A DNA stretch of 64,000 nucleotides from Limisphaerales bacterium (lineage in GTDB: Bacteria > Verrucomicrobiota > Verrucomicrobiia > Limisphaerales > JBGAJN01), in the NCBI GenBank assembly GCA_044224905.1, contig JBGAJN010000001.1, positions 129,110 to 193,109 on the forward strand. Reading direction: 5' to 3'. Positions 13,591 to 28,371 of this stretch are shown piece after piece. Every line of letters starts with the position of its first letter. Positions within the stretch are counted from its first letter, which is position 1. A program made the position numbers and the translations under genes. The notes under the pieces were generated by a model that was not told the DNA's origin, searched no databases, and worked only from the letters and a program-made list of their open reading frames with translations.

Positions 13591-14418
13591 ATGCCCGAAG
13601 TCTTTGGATTCGATGCCTACTCGCCGAAAGAAATCGCCGAGCGCGTGGAAAACGTCGGCGTCACCAAGGCGAATCTGCCGTTGCTGTCGATGTTCGCGCT
13701 GGGCGTGCTCGCGGGTGGATTCATCGGATTGGGGGCGATGTTCTTCACGATCGTCGCGAGTGATTCAGGTCTCTCATTCGCCGTAACGCGAGTGCTGGGT
13801 GGCGCGGTGTTCTCGCTCGGTTTGATCCTCGTGGTCATCGCGGGCGCCGAACTGTTCACCGGCAACAATCTGCTTGTAATGGGGTTGGTCAGCGGGCGAA
13901 TTCCGCCGGGCAAAGTTGTGGAAAACCTGGTCGTCGTTTATCTGGCGAACTTCCTCGGCGCGGCCGGGCTCGCGGTATGCGTCGCGCTCTCGGGTCACTG
14001 GAAGATGAACGGCGGAGCGATCGGAAAAACTGCGGTGACCATCGCGGCAGCAAAGTGCGCGCTGCCATTTGCCGAAGCTTTCTTCAAGGGCGTGCTCTGC
14101 AATCTGCTTGTCTGCCTCGCGGTGTGGCTCGCGATGGCGGGGCGCAATGTGACCGACAAAATCCTCGCGATCCTATTTCCCATCACGGCATTTGTGGCGG
14201 CGGGCTTTGAGCACAGCGTGGCGAACATGTATTTCATCCCGCTCGGCATCGCGCTACGCGGCGACGTGTTATTGCCCGGTGGCGTTGACGCGAGTGCGCT
14301 GGATTGGATCGGCCTTGCCCGAAATCTTTTGCCGGTGACGCTGGGCAACCTCGTCGGTGGCGCGGGAATGGTGGGCTTGATTTACTGGCTCATCTATCGG
14401 CGTAAAGCCCAAGCTTGA
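13591..14418 (+). CDS. Formate/nitrite transporter (FNT) family channel
   Basis: GAELFTGN, LCNLLVCLAVW, FVAAGFEHSVANM, VTLGNLVGG. Confidence 0.93.
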   Translation: MPEVFGFDAYSPKEIAERVENVGVTKANLPLLSMFALGVLAGGFIGLGAMFFTIVASDSGLSFAVTRVLGGAVFSLGLILVVIAGAELFTGNNLLVMGLVSGRIPPGKVVENLVVVYLANFLGAAGLAVCVALSGHWKMNGGAIGKTAVTIAAAKCALPFAEAFFKGVLCNLLVCLAVWLAMAGRNVTDKILAILFPITAFVAAGFEHSVANMYFIPLGIALRGDVLLPGGVDASALDWIGLARNLLPVTLGNLVGGAGMVGLIYWLIYRRKAQA

Positions 14419-14473
14419 GATACGGAATCCCAAGCTCCACGCAGTTTGGTAGCGAAATGAAGACTCGCCTGTC

Positions 14474-15529
14474 TCAGACGACCTTCGCCTCGCCCTTGCC
14501 TTTGATGACCATGCCGATCAACCACGCGTCGTGTTTCGCGGCGCGGATCGATTTGAGCACGGCGTCGGCTTTGTCGGCGGCGACGATGGTGACCATGCCG
14601 ATGCCCATGTTGAAGACCTGGTAGAGTTCGGCATCGGGCACGCCGCTCTTGGCCTCGATCATCTTGAAGATCGGGAGCATGTCCCAGGAACCTTTGCGGA
14701 TGACCACGTCGCACTTGTCGGAGAGCACACGGGGAATGTTGTCGACGAACCCGCCGCCGGTGATGTGCGCGAAGGCTTTCACGGCGTTCGCCTTGCCCGG
14801 CTTGTTGAATTTCTTCACCAATGTCTGCACGAGCGGACCGTAGCTGACGTGAACTTTCAGCAACTCATCGCCAATGGTGTTGCCGAGCTCGGCAACGCGG
14901 CTCGTGGGCTTAAGCTTCAGCTGTTCGAAGAAGATTTTCCGCGCGAGCGAATAGCCGTTGGTATGGAGGCCGGACGCCTTGATGCCGATGACGACGTCGC
15001 CGGGCTTCACGGTTTTCTGGCCGTTGAGCATGCGCGCCTTCTCCACGACGCCGACGATGGTGCCGCTGACGTCGTATTCGCCGGGCTGGTAAAAGCCGGG
15101 CATCTGCGCGGTCTCGCCACCGATGAGTGTGCAGTTGTTCGCCGCGCAACCGCGTGCGAAGCCCTTGATGATCTCGGTGAAAACGTGCGGCTCGAGTTTG
15201 CCGGTGCCGAGATAATCGAGGAAGAAGAGCGGTTCCGCGCCGAGCACGGCGATGTCATTAACGCAGTGGTTCACCAAGTCCTCGCCGATGGTGTCGTGGC
15301 GATCCATCGCGAAGGCGATCTTCAACTTGGTGCCAACGCCATCGACGGACGAGACGAGGACGGGCTGCTTGTACTTCTTCGTGTCGAGGGCGAAGAGTCC
15401 GCCGAAACCGCCAACCTTGCCGAGGACTTCGCGGCGATGGGTCGAGGCGAGAAGTTGCGGAAGCGTGGCCTTCATCTTGTTGCCAAGATCGATGTCCACA
15501 CCGGCGGCTGCGTATGCTTTTATCTTCAT
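14474..15529 (-). CDS. purM: Phosphoribosylformylglycinamidine cyclo-ligase (AIR synthase)
   Basis: YAAAGVDI, GGFGG, DGVGTK, GGETAQMPG, SGLHTNGYSL, FNMGIG. Confidence 0.97.
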   Translation of the reverse strand: MKIKAYAAAGVDIDLGNKMKATLPQLLASTHRREVLGKVGGFGGLFALDTKKYKQPVLVSSVDGVGTKLKIAFAMDRHDTIGEDLVNHCVNDIAVLGAEPLFFLDYLGTGKLEPHVFTEIIKGFARGCAANNCTLIGGETAQMPGFYQPGEYDVSGTIVGVVEKARMLNGQKTVKPGDVVIGIKASGLHTNGYSLARKIFFEQLKLKPTSRVAELGNTIGDELLKVHVSYGPLVQTLVKKFNKPGKANAVKAFAHITGGGFVDNIPRVLSDKCDVVIRKGSWDMLPIFKMIEAKSGVPDAELYQVFNMGIGMVTIVAADKADAVLKSIRAAKHDAWLIGMVIKGKGEAKVV

Positions 15530-15530
15530 A

Positions 15531-15559
15531 GGATTCTGGATTCGGGAGTCAGGATTCAG
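15531..15559. repeat. Left arm of a 29-bp inverted repeat made of heptamer units
   Basis: GGATTCTGGATTCGGGAGTCAGGATTCAG; 28/29 match to the reverse complement of 15934-15962. Confidence 0.95.
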
Positions 15560-15920
15560 CGTTTGCGGTCGAACGCGAATAGGACGAAATCAATCCGCTG
15601 CATAGCCGACTGACTTCGGAGCAAAGATTCTGAATTCGCTCAACATTTTCACGATCACCGAGTTCATTGTCACCGACAACGTAAAGCAATGATTTCACTT
15701 CACCTGCCGAGGCTTTCGCAACATTCCACAGCTGAAGTTTTTCAGCGCGATGAACACGTTCGAAGCCCTCTGCGAGGTTGGCCATGACCGAAACGGCAGC
15801 CCGTTGCAACTGATCACGCAAGCCAAAGTCTTTGTTCAAGGAGGCCAGACGGCCCAGCCGATAAATCTCATTCGTTAGCTCACGCGCCTTTTGCCAGGCT
15901 TTTAAGTCCTCAAACTTCAT
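15549..15920 (-). CDS. Four helix bundle protein (23S rRNA IVP / TIGR02436-like)
   Basis: MKFEDLKAWQKARELT...DFGLRDQLQRAAVSVMANLAEGFER...AKASAGEV; visibly lower GC than its neighbours. Confidence 0.92.
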   Translation of the reverse strand: MKFEDLKAWQKARELTNEIYRLGRLASLNKDFGLRDQLQRAAVSVMANLAEGFERVHRAEKLQLWNVAKASAGEVKSLLYVVGDNELGDRENVERIQNLCSEVSRLCSGLISSYSRSTANAES

Positions 15921-15933
15921 GTGCAAACGGTGA

Positions 15934-15962
15934 CTGAATCCTGACTCCTGAATCCAGAATCC
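15934..15962. repeat. Right arm of the 29-bp heptamer inverted repeat
   Basis: CTGAATC CTGACTC CTGAATC CAGAATC C, directly adjacent to the purF stop codon. Confidence 0.95.
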
Positions 15963-17432
15963 TTAAAGGAGCTTCGGCTGCAATTCTTCCTTCGCCAACG
16001 ATTCGCCGAGGCTCTCCACGCGGGCGCGACGGCGTTCCATGATCTGCTTGTCCACGGTCGGATCGTAAGGCACAGGATAATTGCCGTCGTAGCAGGCCAT
16101 GCAGAAACCTTCCTTCGGCAGACCAGTCGCCTTGACCATGCCTTCCTTCGAAAGGTAACCGAGCGAGTCCGCGTTCAAATACTTCCGGATCTCGTCGATC
16201 GAATAATTCGCCGCCATCAACTTTTTGCGGTCGGGGAAATCGATACCGTACACGCACGGATTCATGTGCGGCGGGCAACTCACCAGCACGTGAACTTCCT
16301 TCGCGCCGGCTTCCTTCAAATTGTTCACGCGCGTCTTGCACGTGGTGCCGCGCACGATCGAATCGTCCACGATGATCACGCGCTTGTCCTTCACCAGCTC
16401 GGGGATGAGGTTCAACTTCACGCGCACGTTGAAATCACGGATGAGCTGCGACGGCTGCAAGAAACTGCGGCCGATGTAATGGTTGCGCACGAACGCCATC
16501 TCGTAGGGTACGCCCGATTCCATCGCGTAACCGAGCGCGGCGGAGTTGCCGCTGTCAGGCACGGGAACGACAATGTCGGCTTTGATGGGGAACTCGCGCG
16601 CGAGCTGGCGCCCCATTTCCACGCGGACTTTGTAAACGTTGCGATTCGAAATCGTGCTGTCGGGGCGGGCGAAATAAACGTATTCGAAAATGCAGAACGC
16701 GCGGCGTTGCTGCTCGGGAAACGCTTGAATGCTCCGCAGACCGTTCTTATCGATGATGACGATCTCGCCCGGTTCGACATCGCGGACGAACTTCGCGTGG
16801 ATCAAATCAAACGCGCACGTCTCGCTCGAAAGCACCCAAGCACCATCCACCTTGCCGATCGAGAGCGGACGGAACCCATGCGGATCACGCACGCCGATCA
16901 ACTCATTCTCAGTCATGATGACGAGCGAGTAGGCGCCTTCGATACGGCGGACGGTTTCGATGAGATTGTTTTCGCTATGATTGAAGGCCGGCTGCGCGAG
17001 GAGATTGAGAATGATCTCGCTGTCCACGGTGGTCTGGAACATCGAGCCCTTGCCTTCGAGTTCGTCGCGAACTTTCGCGGCATTGGTCAGGTTGCCGTTG
17101 TGCGCGATGGCGATTTGGCCGCGCCAGCAATTGCCCGTCAGCGGCTGCGCGTTGCGGATGTGCGAGGAACCGGTCGTCGAATAGCGCGTGTGACCAACGG
17201 CCATTTTGCCAACGAGCTTGCACAAGATTTCGCTGTCGAAAATCTGCGAGACGAGGCCCATGCCTTTGTGCTCGCGGAATTGTGTCCCGTCGCTGGTGAC
17301 GATGCCGGCGCTCTCCTGACCGCGGTGTTGGAGCGCGTACAGCCCGAAGTACGTCAGCTCAGCCGCGTTCGGGTGACCGAAAATGCCGAACACGCCGCAA
17401 TAATGTTTTGGGTAATACTCGGAACTCTGCAT
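15963..17432 (-). CDS. purF: Amidophosphoribosyltransferase
   Basis: Propeptide then CGVFG, LQHRGQE, GHTRYST, HNGNL, PVPDSG, IVDDSIVRGTT; Fe-S cysteines (CPP, FCMAC). Confidence 0.98.
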   Translation of the reverse strand: MQSSEYYPKHYCGVFGIFGHPNAAELTYFGLYALQHRGQESAGIVTSDGTQFREHKGMGLVSQIFDSEILCKLVGKMAVGHTRYSTTGSSHIRNAQPLTGNCWRGQIAIAHNGNLTNAAKVRDELEGKGSMFQTTVDSEIILNLLAQPAFNHSENNLIETVRRIEGAYSLVIMTENELIGVRDPHGFRPLSIGKVDGAWVLSSETCAFDLIHAKFVRDVEPGEIVIIDKNGLRSIQAFPEQQRRAFCIFEYVYFARPDSTISNRNVYKVRVEMGRQLAREFPIKADIVVPVPDSGNSAALGYAMESGVPYEMAFVRNHYIGRSFLQPSQLIRDFNVRVKLNLIPELVKDKRVIIVDDSIVRGTTCKTRVNNLKEAGAKEVHVLVSCPPHMNPCVYGIDFPDRKKLMAANYSIDEIRKYLNADSLGYLSKEGMVKATGLPKEGFCMACYDGNYPVPYDPTVDKQIMERRRARVESLGESLAKEELQPKLL

Positions 17433-17590
17433 CGCGCGCGGAAACTGAACCGGACGCAGGCACACTTGGCAAGCGGAGAATGGGAAAAGCTGGCTATGGG
17501 CCCCAATCCAAGCGGAAAATCGGCGCGCAAAAACCGCGTTTCGGCGAAATGACGTCGAAAGGACGAATCGGAGCCGTTCTACGGGGCCGA

Positions 17591-18262
17591 CTATTTGGCG
17601 CCGCTAAGGTGCTTCAATTGGATATTCCGAAACGCCGCGCGCGTCTGATACGTGGCAATTCCAAACGGAACCGAGCTCTCGATTTCGCCGGGGCGCATGG
17701 AAATTTTTTTGTCGGCCGTTTCCAAATCCGTAAGCTTCTCATCGTCGAGCCACATCTCGATCTTTGCATCCGTCACGCGGACGCGAATGCGATACCACTT
17801 GCCCGAATCATAGCGGACAAACTTCGTCGTTTCGTTCTCTGAAGCGTCAGATGCATCCACGCTGGAAATACCCGTTACCGCACCGCCCCAGCCGCCGAAG
17901 ACCACCGTGAAGTGCGCGTCCTTGTAGGGCATCGTCAGGCCGCAGAAGAAATCGTTGCCGTTGATGCGCATTGCTTCGAGCGTCACCTCGTAGTTCACCT
18001 TGGGAACTGGGTTGGTGTAAGAGAGCCCGCTCAACGCTTCGCCCTGATCGATGATCAGCGCGGGTTTGCCGTCCTTGAACTTCTCTTCAACGGTCCCGCC
18101 TGCTTGAGTGGAAAAATCCGTGGGCTTCCAACCTTTCAAGGTCTTCCCGTCGAACAGTGACACCACGCTGTCGCCGGCGGATTTTGCCGCGGGCTTCTTC
18201 TCCTCCGCCGCGCCGAGATGGAACGCGGTGGCCAGCAACAACAGGGCGGCGAGTTTCTTCAT
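17591..18262 (-). CDS. Secreted DUF1080 (3-keto-disaccharide hydrolase-like) protein
   Basis: Signal peptide MKKLAALLLLATAFHLGA, SLFDGKTLKGW, WYRIRVRV, FRNIQLK. Confidence 0.8.
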   Translation of the reverse strand: MKKLAALLLLATAFHLGAAEEKKPAAKSAGDSVVSLFDGKTLKGWKPTDFSTQAGGTVEEKFKDGKPALIIDQGEALSGLSYTNPVPKVNYEVTLEAMRINGNDFFCGLTMPYKDAHFTVVFGGWGGAVTGISSVDASDASENETTKFVRYDSGKWYRIRVRVTDAKIEMWLDDEKLTDLETADKKISMRPGEIESSVPFGIATYQTRAAFRNIQLKHLSGAK

Positions 18263-21742: not shown

Positions 21743-23125
21743 TCAGCGCTTCAACTGGGTCTCGAGATAGGTGACGACCTGGCGAACGTTCGTATCGACG
21801 GACATCCGGTCTTTCACCAGGCGGCACGCGTGCAACACGGTGCCGTGATCGCGTCCACCGAAGGCTTCGCCAATGGTGTTGAGCGAGCTCTCGGTCATCT
21901 GCCGCGCGAGGAACATGGCGATCTGCCGCGGGAACGCGATGTTCTCGGGGCGACGTTTGCTGGTCATGTCGGCGAGGCGGATGTCGAAGTGTTCGGCGAC
22001 CTTGCGCTGGATGCTGTCGATGCTGAGGAGGAAGCGGCCTTCCTCGTGGAGAATTTCGCGGAGCAAGGTTTCGACGACGTCGACGGTGAGCTTGCGGCCA
22101 GTGAGCGTGGCGTAGGAGGCGACGCGGATGAGCGCGCCTTCAAGGCGACGGATGTTCGCGCGAATGCGGTGCGCGAGGAAGTTCATCACGTCATCAGGGA
22201 GGTCGACGTTGAGGGACTTCTGTTTCTTGCGGAGAATCGCGAGACGGGTTTCCACGTCGGGCGGTTGCATGTCGGTAACGAGACCCCATTCGAAACGCGA
22301 GACGAGGCGGTGTTCGAGATTTTGGATTTCGCTCGCGGGCCGATCACAGGTGAGGACGATCTGTTTGTGCGATTCGTGGAGGGCGTTGAAGGTGTGGAAG
22401 AATTCTTCCTGAATGCGTTCCTTGCCGGCGAGGAACTGGATGTCATCGATCAACAGGACGTCGGTCTGCCGATATTTTTTACGGAAGCGCGCGAGGTTGT
22501 TGTTCTGAATGCCGTCGATGTACTCGTTGGTGAATTTCTCGGAGGAAACGTACGCGACGCGCGCGCCCTTCTTGTGATCCGCGACATATTGACCAATCGC
22601 GTGCAGCAAATGCGTTTTGCCCAAACCGACGCCGCCGTAAAGGAACAGCGGGTTGTAGGATTTGCCGGGCGATTGCGCGACGGCCAACGCCGCCGCGTGC
22701 GCGAAGGTGTTGTTGTTGCCGACGACGAAGGTGTCAAAGGTGTTCTTGGGATTGAACGAGAGTTCGCGCTCCGTCGAGCGATCGTTCGGCGCGTGGTCTT
22801 CCTTCGCGGCTGCAACCTTGGGCCGTGACTTGGTTGCGGGAGCAACCGCGGGAGCCGGAGCCGCAACTGCGGTGGACACTTGGAACTTCACCTTGAACGT
22901 CCGACCACTCGCGTGAGTGACGACGTCCTGGATGAGTCCGAGATAATTGTCCGTCAGCCAGACCTCGCAAAAGTCGTTACCGACTTCGAGCGTCAGATGA
23001 TCGCCATCCACGCCCAGCGCGCGGATCGGGGAAAACCAGAGATTAAAGATATCTGGCTTAAGCATCGAACGGAGCATTTCCTGCGAGGAAGCCCAAATTT
23101 GTTCAGCATTCTGTTGCATTTCCAC
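21743..23125 (-). CDS. dnaA: Chromosomal replication initiator DnaA
   Basis: YNPLFLYGGVGLGKTHL, LLIDDIQF, QEEFFHTFN, FGGRDHGTVLHA. Start is GTG 23125 or ATG 23119. Confidence 0.98.
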   Translation of the reverse strand: MEMQQNAEQIWASSQEMLRSMLKPDIFNLWFSPIRALGVDGDHLTLEVGNDFCEVWLTDNYLGLIQDVVTHASGRTFKVKFQVSTAVAAPAPAVAPATKSRPKVAAAKEDHAPNDRSTERELSFNPKNTFDTFVVGNNNTFAHAAALAVAQSPGKSYNPLFLYGGVGLGKTHLLHAIGQYVADHKKGARVAYVSSEKFTNEYIDGIQNNNLARFRKKYRQTDVLLIDDIQFLAGKERIQEEFFHTFNALHESHKQIVLTCDRPASEIQNLEHRLVSRFEWGLVTDMQPPDVETRLAILRKKQKSLNVDLPDDVMNFLAHRIRANIRRLEGALIRVASYATLTGRKLTVDVVETLLREILHEEGRFLLSIDSIQRKVAEHFDIRLADMTSKRRPENIAFPRQIAMFLARQMTESSLNTIGEAFGGRDHGTVLHACRLVKDRMSVDTNVRQVVTYLETQLKR

Positions 23126-24432: not shown

Positions 24433-24606
24433 GAAGTAAGCAAAGATTTCGGGCAGTTAGATAAAATTGTTCTTTGATTGCCCAACAGATTTCGGTCCGG
24501 GCTAGTTACAGGCTCAGATCGAGAATCCCCTAAGCCTACTTGTGTAACTTATTCCGTATATTCCACGGGCTCGTTCGTCATCCCCTGACTGACGAGCCCG
24601 TTTTTA
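24433..24606 (+). ncRNA. Candidate small RNA, about 170 nt, with three hairpins
   Basis: Lies between the promoter and a strong terminator; no ATG-initiated ORF; stems at 24451-24483, 24504-24549 and 24565-24601. Confidence 0.5.
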
Positions 24607-24610
24607 TTTT
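24565..24610 (+). terminator. Intrinsic terminator
   Basis: ACGGGCTCGT...ACGAGCCCGT followed by TTTTATTTT. Confidence 0.75.
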
Positions 24611-25284
24611 CTCCGACGAGTTTCGTTGTCGGCGATCAAGCGATTCAACTCAGCCAAAATCTTCTGGCACGTCTCCTCCACCGTCAGTCCGGCATTGTTG
24701 ATGATCCGCGCGCCCAACGGCACCATCAATGGCGCCGCCGCACGTTGGCTGTCGCGATGATCGCGTTCACGCAAATCCTCCACCTGTCCCTGACCAGCAC
24801 GCCGACGAGCCCGTTCCTCCGGCGGCGCATCAAGGAAGAATTTGTAATCCGTGTCCGGGAAGACATTCGTGCCGATGTCACGCCCCTCCATCACCAAGTT
24901 GCCAAAAGCTCGGCACTCACGCTGGGTATTTTTCATCCAACGGCGCACCGCCGGCACTGCCGCAACCTTCGAAGCGGCGGCTGAGATTTCTGGAGAACGA
25001 ATTTCTGCGACCGGATCGTGCCCGTCGACCAACAGACGCACCGCATTATCCACACACGTGAGCTTTGTTTTCCAACGTCGACAGGCTGCCCCGATCGCCC
25101 GCGCATCATTCACGTCCACACCTTTCCGCAGGCAGTGCCACGCCAGCGTGCGGTACATCGCTCCGGTGTCCACATAGAGAAACCCCAACTCCTTCGCCAA
25201 CGCACGCGCTGTGCTGCTTTTGCCACTCGCACCCGGACCGTCGATCGCGACGACGACGTGAGTGTGAGCCGGTTGGGACGACAT
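24604..25284 (-). CDS. cmk: Cytidylate kinase (canonical copy)
   Basis: AIDGPGASGKS, DTGAMYR, ASKVA, MEGRDIG, RDHRDSQRAAAPL. Confidence 0.92.
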   Translation of the reverse strand: MSSQPAHTHVVVAIDGPGASGKSSTARALAKELGFLYVDTGAMYRTLAWHCLRKGVDVNDARAIGAACRRWKTKLTCVDNAVRLLVDGHDPVAEIRSPEISAAASKVAAVPAVRRWMKNTQRECRAFGNLVMEGRDIGTNVFPDTDYKFFLDAPPEERARRRAGQGQVEDLRERDHRDSQRAAAPLMVPLGARIINNAGLTVEETCQKILAELNRLIADNETRRRK

Positions 25285-25363
25285 GTCGGAAGATTGCACG
25301 CGGCGAAGATTTTCTGTCAGCCGGAAACTCGTGGAAAAATCACTGACTAGAGTGCTGAGTTGC

Positions 25364-26047
25364 TCAAGCAAAGACATCTGGCGCGCGCTCGCGCAAGATT
25401 TTCAAAAGCTCCTGCAACGTGTCCTCAACCTTATGCTGCGAAGTATCGATGATTTCCGCATCTGCAGCGGGCAGGTTCAAATCCTTGTCCAACTCATCGC
25501 GACGCGCCTGGTCGCCTCCGTAGCCGGCCCGTTCAAGGCGACGATGCCGGATGGTTTCGTCTGCCGTGAGGAAAAATTTGAACGGCGTCTCTCGGAAAAT
25601 CCGCGTGCCGATGTCGCGCCCATCCATCACGAGGCTGCCAAACTCCGCGCAGCCGCGCTGGAACGGCAACATCCATTCGCGCACCGCTGGCACGTGCGAA
25701 ACGAGCGCAACTTTGTTCGCCACTTCGGGCGCACGCAATTCGGCCAGCGGCCGGTAACCATCCACGAGCACGCACAACTCTCCTTCAGTCGAGACCAGTT
25801 TTACCGGCCAGGAAGTGCAGGCTCGCGCGACCGCGGCGGACTGCTCGGCGGATAGATGATCCATTTTCTCTGCCGGAAAAACGCCCGTACGCAAGCAATA
25901 CCAAGTCAGGGCGCGATACATCACACCGGTGTCGACGTGCAGGAAGCCGACGCGACGCGCCAACTCGCGCGACACCGAGCCTTTGCCCGTGGCGCTAGGA
26001 CCGTCGATGGCGATGACGATGGGGGTTTTCAAGTTAACAGATGGCAA
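25364..26047 (-). CDS. cmk: Cytidylate kinase paralog (divergent)
   Basis: AIDGPSATGKG, DTGVMYR, MDGRDIG, KFFLTA; start uncertain (TTG). Confidence 0.85.
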   Translation of the reverse strand: MPSVNLKTPIVIAIDGPSATGKGSVSRELARRVGFLHVDTGVMYRALTWYCLRTGVFPAEKMDHLSAEQSAAVARACTSWPVKLVSTEGELCVLVDGYRPLAELRAPEVANKVALVSHVPAVREWMLPFQRGCAEFGSLVMDGRDIGTRIFRETPFKFFLTADETIRHRRLERAGYGGDQARRDELDKDLNLPAADAEIIDTSQHKVEDTLQELLKILRERAPDVFA

Positions 26048-28305: not shown

Positions 28306-28312
28306 CGCGAGA

Positions 28313-28340
28313 GTTTCGGGTTTCAAGTTTCAGGTTTCAA
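28313..28340. repeat. Solo heptamer tandem repeat (GTTTCRR x4)
   Basis: GTTTCGG GTTTCAA GTTTCAG GTTTCAA just upstream of the tyrA start. Confidence 0.7.
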
Positions 28341-28371
28341 GCGGCAAGTTATCGAAGCACGTGCTCGCGCT

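Follow-up and report, generated by a model that had tools for sequence, protein, structure and literature searches.

Background

The closest described relatives of the element reported here are the intervening sequences (IVSs) of 23S ribosomal RNA (rRNA). That of Coxiella burnetii, as set out in the accessible portion of PMC4990558, is 428 nucleotides (nt) long, is closed by a terminal stem of 28 base pairs (bp), carries tandem heptamers upstream of an open reading frame (ORF) for the protein S23p, and is cut mid-stem by the RNase III of both Coxiella and Escherichia coli; its ORF is reported there to be decaying and probably untranslated. Here we describe a 433-nt hairpin that lies between the genes purF and purM in a 64,000-nt stretch of DNA (hereafter the window) from a Limisphaerales bacterium (assembly GCA_044224905.1, contig JBGAJN010000001.1, positions 129,110-193,109, forward strand), and whose loop is filled by a gene for a four-helix-bundle (FHB) protein of the S23p family. 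We consider it probable that this is a promoter-less, transposase-less mobile cassette of 23S-IVS build, inserted exactly at the purF-purM junction. To our knowledge, the FHB/S23p family has been without an assigned function ever since its discovery in rRNA intervening sequences.

Other described systems share parts of this build. Tandem heptamers near start codons are known as TAACTGA direct repeats from Beggiatoaceae, cyanobacteria and Bacteroidetes, where they mostly point toward a start codon and the largest class of arrays ends 1 nt 5' of it (PMC4679880), and from Geobacter metallireducens, where sites of five tandem heptamers have the consensus MTYCTGA (PMC2700814); the searchable parts of these two texts contain no occurrence of 'S23' or 'four helix'. 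FHB genes have been reported as CRISPR-associated from a position between cmr2 and cmr3, which was read as a link to a cas nuclease, in a source whose available sections also quote the family motif GxxRxxxSxxxNxxE (PMC3936711). The Avd protein of diversity-generating retroelements (DGRs) is a pentamer that binds nucleic acid and reverse transcriptase (RT), according to excerpts of PMC10053308 and the description of structure 8UB7. No description of FHB genes as hairpin cassettes in operon junctions was found in the literature searched, outside which most subscription journals lay.

Anatomy of the purF-purM junction

All elements of the junction lie on the minus strand of the window and are given here from purF to purM.

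15963-17465, minus strand: purF (amidophosphoribosyltransferase; TIGR01134, 6e-160), with its stop TAA at 15965-15963
15934-15962, minus strand: 5' arm of 29 nt, heptamers GGATTCT GGATTCA GGAGTCA GGATTCA plus G, directly after the purF stop
15933-15930, minus strand: bulge TCAC, 4 nt, between the lower and the upper stem
15923-15929, minus strand: left strand of the upper stem, CGTTTGC, which pairs with 15560-15566 and lies 2 nt 5' of the FHB ATG
15549-15920, minus strand: FHB gene, 123 aa, with ATG at 15920 and stop TGA at 15551-15549 (PF05635, TIGR02436)
15560-15566, minus strand: right strand of the upper stem, GCAAACG, within the 3' end of the FHB coding sequence
15531-15559, minus strand: 3' arm, CTGAATC CTGACTC CCGAATC CAGAATC C, complementary to the 5' arm at 28 of 29 positions
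15530, minus strand: lone T that separates the 3' arm from the purM ATG and is paired with 15963, the final A of the purF TAA
14474-15529, minus strand: purM (AIR synthetase; TIGR00878, 6.7e-114), with ATG at 15529-15527
14465-14481, minus strand: terminator-like hairpin and T-run at the end of purM

A sequence-only reading of this DNA had already described a purF TAA, 29-bp arms complementary at 28 of 29 positions, an FHB stop inside one arm, a single T and the purM ATG, and it proved correct throughout. The 5' arm, which Tandem Repeats Finder (TRF) reads as 4.3 copies of a period of 7, is separated by a 13-nt spacer from the FHB ATG at 15920, and the 3' arm encodes the final three sense codons and the stop of the FHB gene, carrying TGA in two frames (15558-15556 and the FHB stop at 15551-15549). 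An inverted-repeat search returned the arms as 15530-15559 and 15934-15963, 30 nt long, 97% complementary and 374 nt apart, with one mismatch of A opposite C; because this extension pairs the T at 15530 with the final A of the purF stop, the base of the stem spans stop codon to start codon. Duplex folding adds seven pairs beyond the 4-nt bulge, giving 36 pairs at -63.1 kcal/mol, and the 491-nt RNA folds at -196.5 kcal/mol against -154.2 +/- 6.1 for shuffled sequences (z = -6.9; 0 of 100 shuffles as good), with the terminal stem present in both the minimum-free-energy and the centroid fold. When the 64 kb were searched for the arm with up to three mismatches only two sites were found (expected 0.00; 0 of 100 shuffles gave at least two matches), and the heptamer of the arms has no further occurrence elsewhere in the window.

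This anatomy matches that of the ORF-bearing Coxiella IVS, as had been proposed from the sequence. Set beside the 23S IVSs of Coxiella and Leptospira, the cassette is of like length (433 nt against 428 nt in Coxiella) and is closed by a like terminal stem (36 bp, 29 of them in the arms, against 28 bp); tandem heptamers lie 5' of an S23p/FHB ORF that fills the loop, and the element is sporadic in distribution and without a transposase (accessible portion of PMC4990558, for these and the following comparisons). Unlike those IVSs, it lies between protein genes of an operon and not in helix 25 or 45 of 23S rRNA; its ORF is intact, and the ORFs of related Nostocales cassettes are under purifying selection, whereas that of Coxiella is reported as decaying; and excision by RNase III has been shown there, whereas the cassette is known here from sequence alone. 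No Rfam family, rRNA included, reached threshold anywhere in the window. Because the build is that of an IVS and the residence is outside 23S rRNA, we regard the element as an IVS-type cassette of operon junctions.

A foreign insertion

A search with purF yielded 80 Verrucomicrobiota loci from Limisphaerales/Pedosphaera-like metagenome-assembled genomes (MAGs) at 73-86% identity, the window's own genome not being among them; 69 of them have at least 1200 nt 3' of purF, and one (L075) has 938 nt. The contigs L002, L008, L014, L016, L025, L065 and L078 are titled as Akkermansia muciniphila, Klebsiella or Bifidobacteriaceae MAGs, labels that seem unreliable (purF 75-82% identical). purM adjoins purF in eight of the 80 (L002, L034, L038, L044, L045, L075, L076 and L080, with spacers of 70, 2, 287, 51, 74, 3, 114 and 8 nt), and the FHB gene is absent from all eight. 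The PurF C-terminus (..QPKLL*) has the same length in the window and in relatives, and the PurM N-terminus MKIKAY aligns with MK.KAY of relatives; since both termini match, the insert sits exactly between native gene ends. Its GC content is 50.3% against 59.1% for the window, within the lowest 2% of 433-nt windows, and the GC content at third codon positions (GC3) is 0.52 in the FHB gene against 0.77 in purF and 0.84 in purM. By these comparisons the cassette is a foreign insertion, and the eight empty relatives and the foreign composition bear out the earlier proposal of a transposase-less insert.

It could be held instead that the FHB gene belongs to the purF-purM operon as a normal resident, with the inverted repeat serving as a hairpin for local regulation or stabilisation, since the gene is co-oriented and tightly packed, belongs to a conserved protein family and is not accompanied by an excess of promoter- or terminator-like sites. 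That view is contradicted by the eight relatives that have the adjacency and lack the gene, by the foreign GC3 and by the homologous cassettes in unrelated operons described below, and we find it scarcely credible. As to signals, a scan of 14300-17800 gave four terminator-like sites against a shuffle mean of 4.1, with none in the cassette and none between purF and purM; apart from that at the end of purM, they lie within coding sequence. A scan for a promoter within the cassette gave one promoter-like site where 1.2 were expected. Since promoter-like sites are not in excess and cassettes are usually co-oriented with their hosts, the cassette would be read within the host transcript, here that of the purF-purM operon.

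Removal of the cassette would leave TAA-T-ATG, which the sequence-only reading took for a typical coupled junction. Such an ancestor is plausible, because three of the eight relatives have spacers of 2-8 nt; that tight coupling is typical fared less well, for the four nearest relatives (purM 81-84% identical) have spacers of 51, 70, 74 and 287 nt. No target-site duplication was found in the window, where the flanks read ..TTTAA and TATG... A short ORF whose two CxxC pairs look, by eye, like a zinc ribbon lies in the 287-nt spacer of L038 (3673-3959), and the 74-nt spacer of L045 holds two tandem CTGAATA units.

The four-helix-bundle protein

The FHB protein matches PF05635 at 3.7e-29 (101.5 bits against a cut-off of 33.8; profile positions 1-105 of 106) and TIGR02436 at 1.1e-26 (93.1 bits; cut-off 24), and by these scores it is a true member of the PF05635/TIGR02436 family (23S rRNA IVS protein, S23p). 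An AlphaFold2 model (pLDDT 93.7) has helices at residues 3-23, 32-54, 58-84 and 90-119, and Foldseek aligns it with 2GSC (XCC0516) and 2RLD (BT_0352) at TM 0.80-0.83 and a root-mean-square deviation of 1.5-2.3; phmmer recovers the same two relatives at 9.5e-9 (2GSC) and 2.2e-5, and both are deposited with five chains per entry. The motif region, QLQRAAVSVMANLAEG, keeps R, S, N and E in register and has Q, not G, in the first position; 30 aligned homologues show no variation at S44, N48 and E51 and hardly any at R40. The family is a very large one: of 8000 candidates scored, 7980 reached significance. Identity to the closest relatives is 88, 85, 84 and 81%, the 78-88% set being known from metagenome contigs alone; Nostocales FHB proteins share 34-37% identity with that of the window, and phage genomes gave no tblastn match at 1e-6. 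The ratio of nonsynonymous to synonymous substitution (dN/dS) is 0.10-0.20 in 17 of 17 diverged pairs of FHB genes from Nostocales cassettes, four near-identical pairs being uninformative, and by this measure the protein is maintained by purifying selection.

The kinship with Avd put forward earlier holds at the level of the fold, Foldseek giving TM 0.75 to the Avd chains 8UB7 and 4DWL at 12-14% sequence identity. This likeness, together with a PHROG hit of low significance (8.2e-4) to 'Avd protein of DGR', is what would speak for the FHB protein as the accessory protein of an actual DGR. We judge that reading to be very improbable indeed: no RT was found among ORFs of at least 200 aa in 4956-26047 (about 10 kb on each side), no template/variable repeat pair was found nearby, where the repeat search gave only the inverted arms and, as direct pairs, chance 12-mers, and the non-DGR family members 2GSC and 2RLD match much better. 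Repetitive extragenic palindromic (REP) sequences and bacterial interspersed mosaic elements (BIMEs) with REP-associated tyrosine transposase (RAYT) genes, and miniature inverted-repeat transposable elements (MITEs), are further points of comparison. These elements resemble the cassette in a gene placed between inverted short repeats and in geneless hairpin copies in intercistronic spacers, and MITEs also in their terminal inverted repeats. PF05635 is, however, the sole Pfam match of the FHB protein, which is without a nuclease or transposase domain, HUH/Y1 included; the repeat unit differs by cassette, even within one plasmid family; and the target-site duplication of a MITE is not seen. The cassette is not a DGR, not a RAYT/REP element and not a classical MITE.

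Recurrence of the architecture

For comparison we assembled 17 FHB loci, which represent 13 insertion events in Verrucomicrobiota, Nostocales, Riemerella and Gemmatirosa: the window, the locus L032, 13 of the 18 plasmid records returned by tblastn with the FHB protein, and two loci from DNA searches. The five omitted plasmid records have scores equal to those of H3, H11 or H16, and in H7, H9 and H13 the first place alone was used; the starts in L082 and L086 and the gene directions in L089, an unannotated record, are our own ORF reading. L032 came from a search of the 80 relative loci (1.24 Mb in all) with a hidden Markov model built from 120 FHB homologues, and its gene is placed as follows.

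13103-13615 of L032, same strand as its neighbours: FHB gene between kdsB (PF02348) and pyrG (PF06418)

Inverted tandem 8-mer arrays enclose this gene, the 5' arm overlapping the last codons and the stop of kdsB and the 3' array ending 3 nt before pyrG; as to an empty counterpart, kdsB and pyrG are adjacent in no other locus compared. More generally, inverted tandem arrays of 7- or 8-mers flank the FHB gene in 12 of the 13 events. The 5'-arm repeat unit varies by cassette (GGATTCA, TTCAACGN, TCAGGAG, GGGGAAA, AAGGTTY, AGGGTGT, AGGAGATA, GAGGGCAG and GGGAGTA), yet despite these differing units the two arms are mutually complementary in every array-bearing cassette. The host operons are as varied as the repeats, including kdsB-pyrG, cas10-cmr3, nrdA-nrdB and plasmid transfer genes.

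Distances from arm to codon could be measured in 10 events at junctions between co-directional genes. The 5' arm lies 0-2 nt past the upstream stop, or overlaps it, in eight of them (the window, L032, L082, the L083 group, L085, L086, L087 and L099) and 3-5 nt past it in L081 and L094/L095; the gap from the end of the 3' arm to the downstream start is 0-8 nt in seven, counting an unannotated ATG in L082 and an internal ATG in L086 as starts, and 22-40 nt in L081, L085 and L094/L095. The placement of cassettes at other loci relative to codons, which the sequence-only reading had named as a point to check, is not random. The FHB gene is co-oriented with its neighbours in 10 of 12 co-directional events (one-sided binomial 0.019).

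Some individual cassettes deserve description in their own right. On plasmid pNe_5 of Nostoc edaphicum (L099:1093-1589) an FHB cassette lies antisense between nrdA and nrdB, its arms of about seven and five GGGAGTA-type heptamers still spanning the junction, from the stop codon of nrdA up to some 7 nt short of the start of nrdB. On plasmid1 of Calothrix brevissima (L086:1869-1915) the annotated start of the downstream gene lies 5' of the 3' arm, such that the first residues of the predicted protein are the heptamer array; an in-frame ATG 6 nt past the array looks like the real start. In a type III-B locus on a plasmid of Picosynechococcus PCC 7003 (L087:1450-1879), an FHB cassette separates cas10/cmr2 from cmr3; its inverted AGGAGATA arrays begin at the stop of cas10 and stop some 5 nt short of the start of cmr3. 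The last of these has the very position from which FHB genes were called CRISPR-associated (PMC3936711, available sections); where that position was read as a functional link, the cassette reading makes it an incidental junction insertion, and insertions of this type may explain the earlier reports.

Filled and empty sites

A blastn search of plasmids with the Nostoc punctiforme locus returned 22 records, among them homologous operons without the FHB gene. Junction A of this operon is empty in five loci (L090-L093 and L081), where it reads tag-GTT-atg, and filled in four, of which L083 and L084 read tag-ATCAGGAGTCAGG...CTTCTGGATTCTGATT-atg and L097 and L098 carry the same cassette lineage with slightly different arm ends. 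Junction B, one gene on, is empty in six loci (taa-AA-atg, tag-CA-atg, taa-TTT-atg or an overlapping TAATG) and in L081 it is occupied by another cassette, whose arms are of GGGGAAA type. On Aulosira, Trichormus and Scytonema plasmids the alignment covers the cassette and nothing else (query 1439/1442-1857, 82-84% identity), in different gene contexts, and one cassette lineage occurs in three contexts. In these alignments the FHB gene is seen to travel as a separate unit closed by a hairpin, its filled and empty sites cleanly distinguished. The L083 FHB gene shares 83% nt identity with its L085 counterpart, which occupies another context, and 78% with its L084 counterpart, which occupies the same junction, while the flanks of L083 and L084 are 87% identical; the history of junction A therefore suggests repeated insertion or cassette exchange. 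On plasmid pNsp_b of Nostoc sp. ATCC 53789 (L100:700-1520) a GGGGAAA-armed FHB gene is annotated as two fragments, because a second hairpin, its arms built from that repeat type too, has inserted within it.

Heptamer arrays without the gene

Tandem arrays of period 7 are unusually common in the verrucomicrobial loci L001-L080: TRF rows numbered 264 for period 7, 105 for period 8 and 135 for period 5. Filtering left 148 arrays, which form 16 inverted pairs. Seven of the 16 are geneless, with loops of 14-151 nt, against loops of 351-493 nt in FHB-bearing pairs. One such geneless heptamer hairpin fills the 114-nt purF-purM spacer of L076 (11476-11590; ATGACCA... / TTGGTCA x3), its stem extending from the purF stop TGA to 2 nt before the purM ATG at -61 kcal/mol with 30-nt flanks. 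The purF-purM junction, it seems, collects small inserts.

Solo arrays occur as well. Within the window, 28312-28341 holds four heptamers on the minus strand (CTTGAAA CCTGAAA CTTGAAA CCCGAAA) in the spacer between two minus-strand ORFs, 8 nt 5' of a probable GTG start. Plasmid pNPUN02 of Nostoc punctiforme has a solo array AGGAGTC AGGAGTC AGGATTC AG (L096:22341-22380), of the heptamer class of the cassette arms and of the window's arm, one having been found in 50 kb, and a geneless inverted pair of CAATTCG arrays (L096:19961-20135). We set aside the heptamer shared by the window and the Nostocales as evidence of transfer, the FHB proteins being only 34-37% identical and MTYCTGA occurring in Geobacter too.

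These arrays bring the cassette close to the published heptamer repeats. Read in another register (ATCCTGA CTCCCGA ATCCAGA), the window's 3' arm fits the MTYCTGA class, and it ends 1 nt before a start codon, the commonest position of TAACTGA arrays in the portion of PMC4679880 available; the solo array at 28312-28341 likewise precedes a probable start. The published arrays differ in being direct repeats without a cargo gene, whereas here inverted arrays enclose one. The remark, made from the sequence, that FHB genes are often near heptamer repeats could not be traced to a printed source, but the loci compared here bear it out.

How the stem may act

If the cassette is transcribed with its operon, the two arms would form in the messenger RNA (mRNA) a 36-bp stem, at the foot of which the final nucleotide of the purF stop would face the nucleotide just ahead of the purM AUG. 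Such a stem would hide the initiation regions of both FHB, whose start lies 2 nt from the stem top, and purM, through the 3' arm. By analogy with the Coxiella IVS, cleavage by RNase III would be the most probable fate of so long and near-perfect a duplex (28/29), a call that we regard as evenly balanced; the cuts would separate the purF, FHB and purM messages. Before cleavage, or without it, coupling by unmasking might operate, and we advance this tentatively. A ribosome terminating at the purF UAA must melt the lower stem, and because it would thereby free the strand before the purM AUG, translation of purM would stay dependent on that of purF. A relay through FHB may offer a second route to re-initiation, the arm-supplied TGA lying 19 nt before the purM AUG.

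The same geometry invites a bolder reading, that ribosomes pass from the purF stop across the base of the stem to the purM AUG and skip the loop altogether. Precedents of the shunting type are plant pararetrovirus leaders and T4 gene 60; we know of no bacterial precedent for shunting across some 430 nt, which counts against the idea. In the window and in L083/L084 the foot of the stem does link the final stop-codon nucleotide with the one that precedes the AUG, the geneless hairpin of L076 has the same geometry at the same junction, and the arms of L099 span stop to start even though its FHB gene is antisense. The 3' arm nevertheless lies 22-40 nt from the start in L081, L085 and L094/L095, and this geometry is explained equally well if the terminating ribosome simply unmasks the start region; we rate such a bypass as highly improbable.

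A more serious alternative is that the arms act at the level of DNA only, as terminal inverted repeats or hairpins of a non-autonomous element whose enzyme is encoded elsewhere, or as handles for recombination between heptamer arrays, the mRNA hairpin being a tolerated by-product and the stop/start position simply where an insert is harmless. It would accommodate the filled and empty sites, the single cassette lineage in several contexts, the nested hairpin within the FHB gene of L100, the seven geneless hairpins of the same build, the antisense cassettes of L099 and L100 and stem energies without bias toward the sense strand. It sits less easily with the lack of a target-site duplication, with arm sequences that are wholly different among cassettes, unlike the ends of one transposase, and with the preference for co-orientation (10/12) and for an arm at the stop codon (8/10, at 0-2 nt or overlapping); moreover, because it buries two initiation regions, the stem can hardly be neutral in the mRNA. 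We think this alternative rather unlikely. The purine-rich 5' arm was considered as a sign of gene orientation and dropped, since the polarity of hairpin arms is the same on both strands.

Several observations tell against an IVS-like cassette whose stem works in the host message, and we set them down together. The comparative sample is small, and Nostocales dominate its plasmids; the 1.24 Mb of relatives yielded one further FHB gene, and the window has a single copy. As for movement, no enzyme is at hand, PF05635 being the sole Pfam match of the inserted gene, and the Nostoc sites show no target duplication (empty tag-GTT-atg, filled tag-ATCAG...CTGATT-atg). The copy in L088 is without complementary arms and lies between transposase genes, that in L089 lies between ORFs that we read as convergent, and the FHB gene is antisense to its neighbours in L099 and in the degenerate copy L100, for which reason a relay through FHB is not general. 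The 51-287-nt spacers of the four nearest relatives are not tight, and abutment on codons could follow merely from insertion into very short spacers. Among 10 cassettes the stem energy is better on the sense strand in six loci and on the antisense strand in four, a split by which selection at the RNA level is not separated from selection at the DNA level, and the one mismatch in the window's arms, an A-C in the mRNA, would become a G-U on the opposite strand.

A still wider proposal is that ORF-bearing 23S IVSs, orphan FHB genes and start-adjacent heptamer arrays are parts of one system; we offer it as an improbable picture. Hairpin cassettes would home to, or survive only at, sites that tolerate an extruded RNA hairpin, such as the tips of rRNA helices and operon junctions between stop and start, and thanks to the stem the insert would be handled by ribosomes or RNase III as though absent. 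A pentameric, Avd-like FHB protein would recognise the heptamer arrays, the match of five subunits to four or five repeats then being meaningful, and would serve the spread or maintenance of the element, perhaps with a host reverse transcriptase.

Neighbouring genes

The genes around the junction are housekeeping genes: purD and those for a PEP-utilising enzyme, an acetyl-CoA-synthetase-like protein, a formate/nitrite transporter and dnaA; PADLOC matched nothing. The regions 21743-23125 and 24604-26047 of the window hold dnaA, about 6 kb from the cassette, and two tandem cytidylate kinase ORFs with a 14-nt overlap. Because of the nearby dnaA, the window probably lies near the replication origin.

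Conclusions

If FHB genes travel as hairpin-closed cassettes, the rRNA intervening sequence becomes a special case of a more general element, and the 'association' of the family with unrelated systems, type III CRISPR loci among them, finds an explanation. The family would likewise be tied to the unexplained tandem heptamer arrays near start codons. For annotation, cassettes and their arms can shift predicted starts, as in the gene downstream of the cassette in L086. The plasmids of Nostoc punctiforme are culturable, tractable systems in which RNase III processing, coupling across the hairpin and movement of the cassette may be followed.

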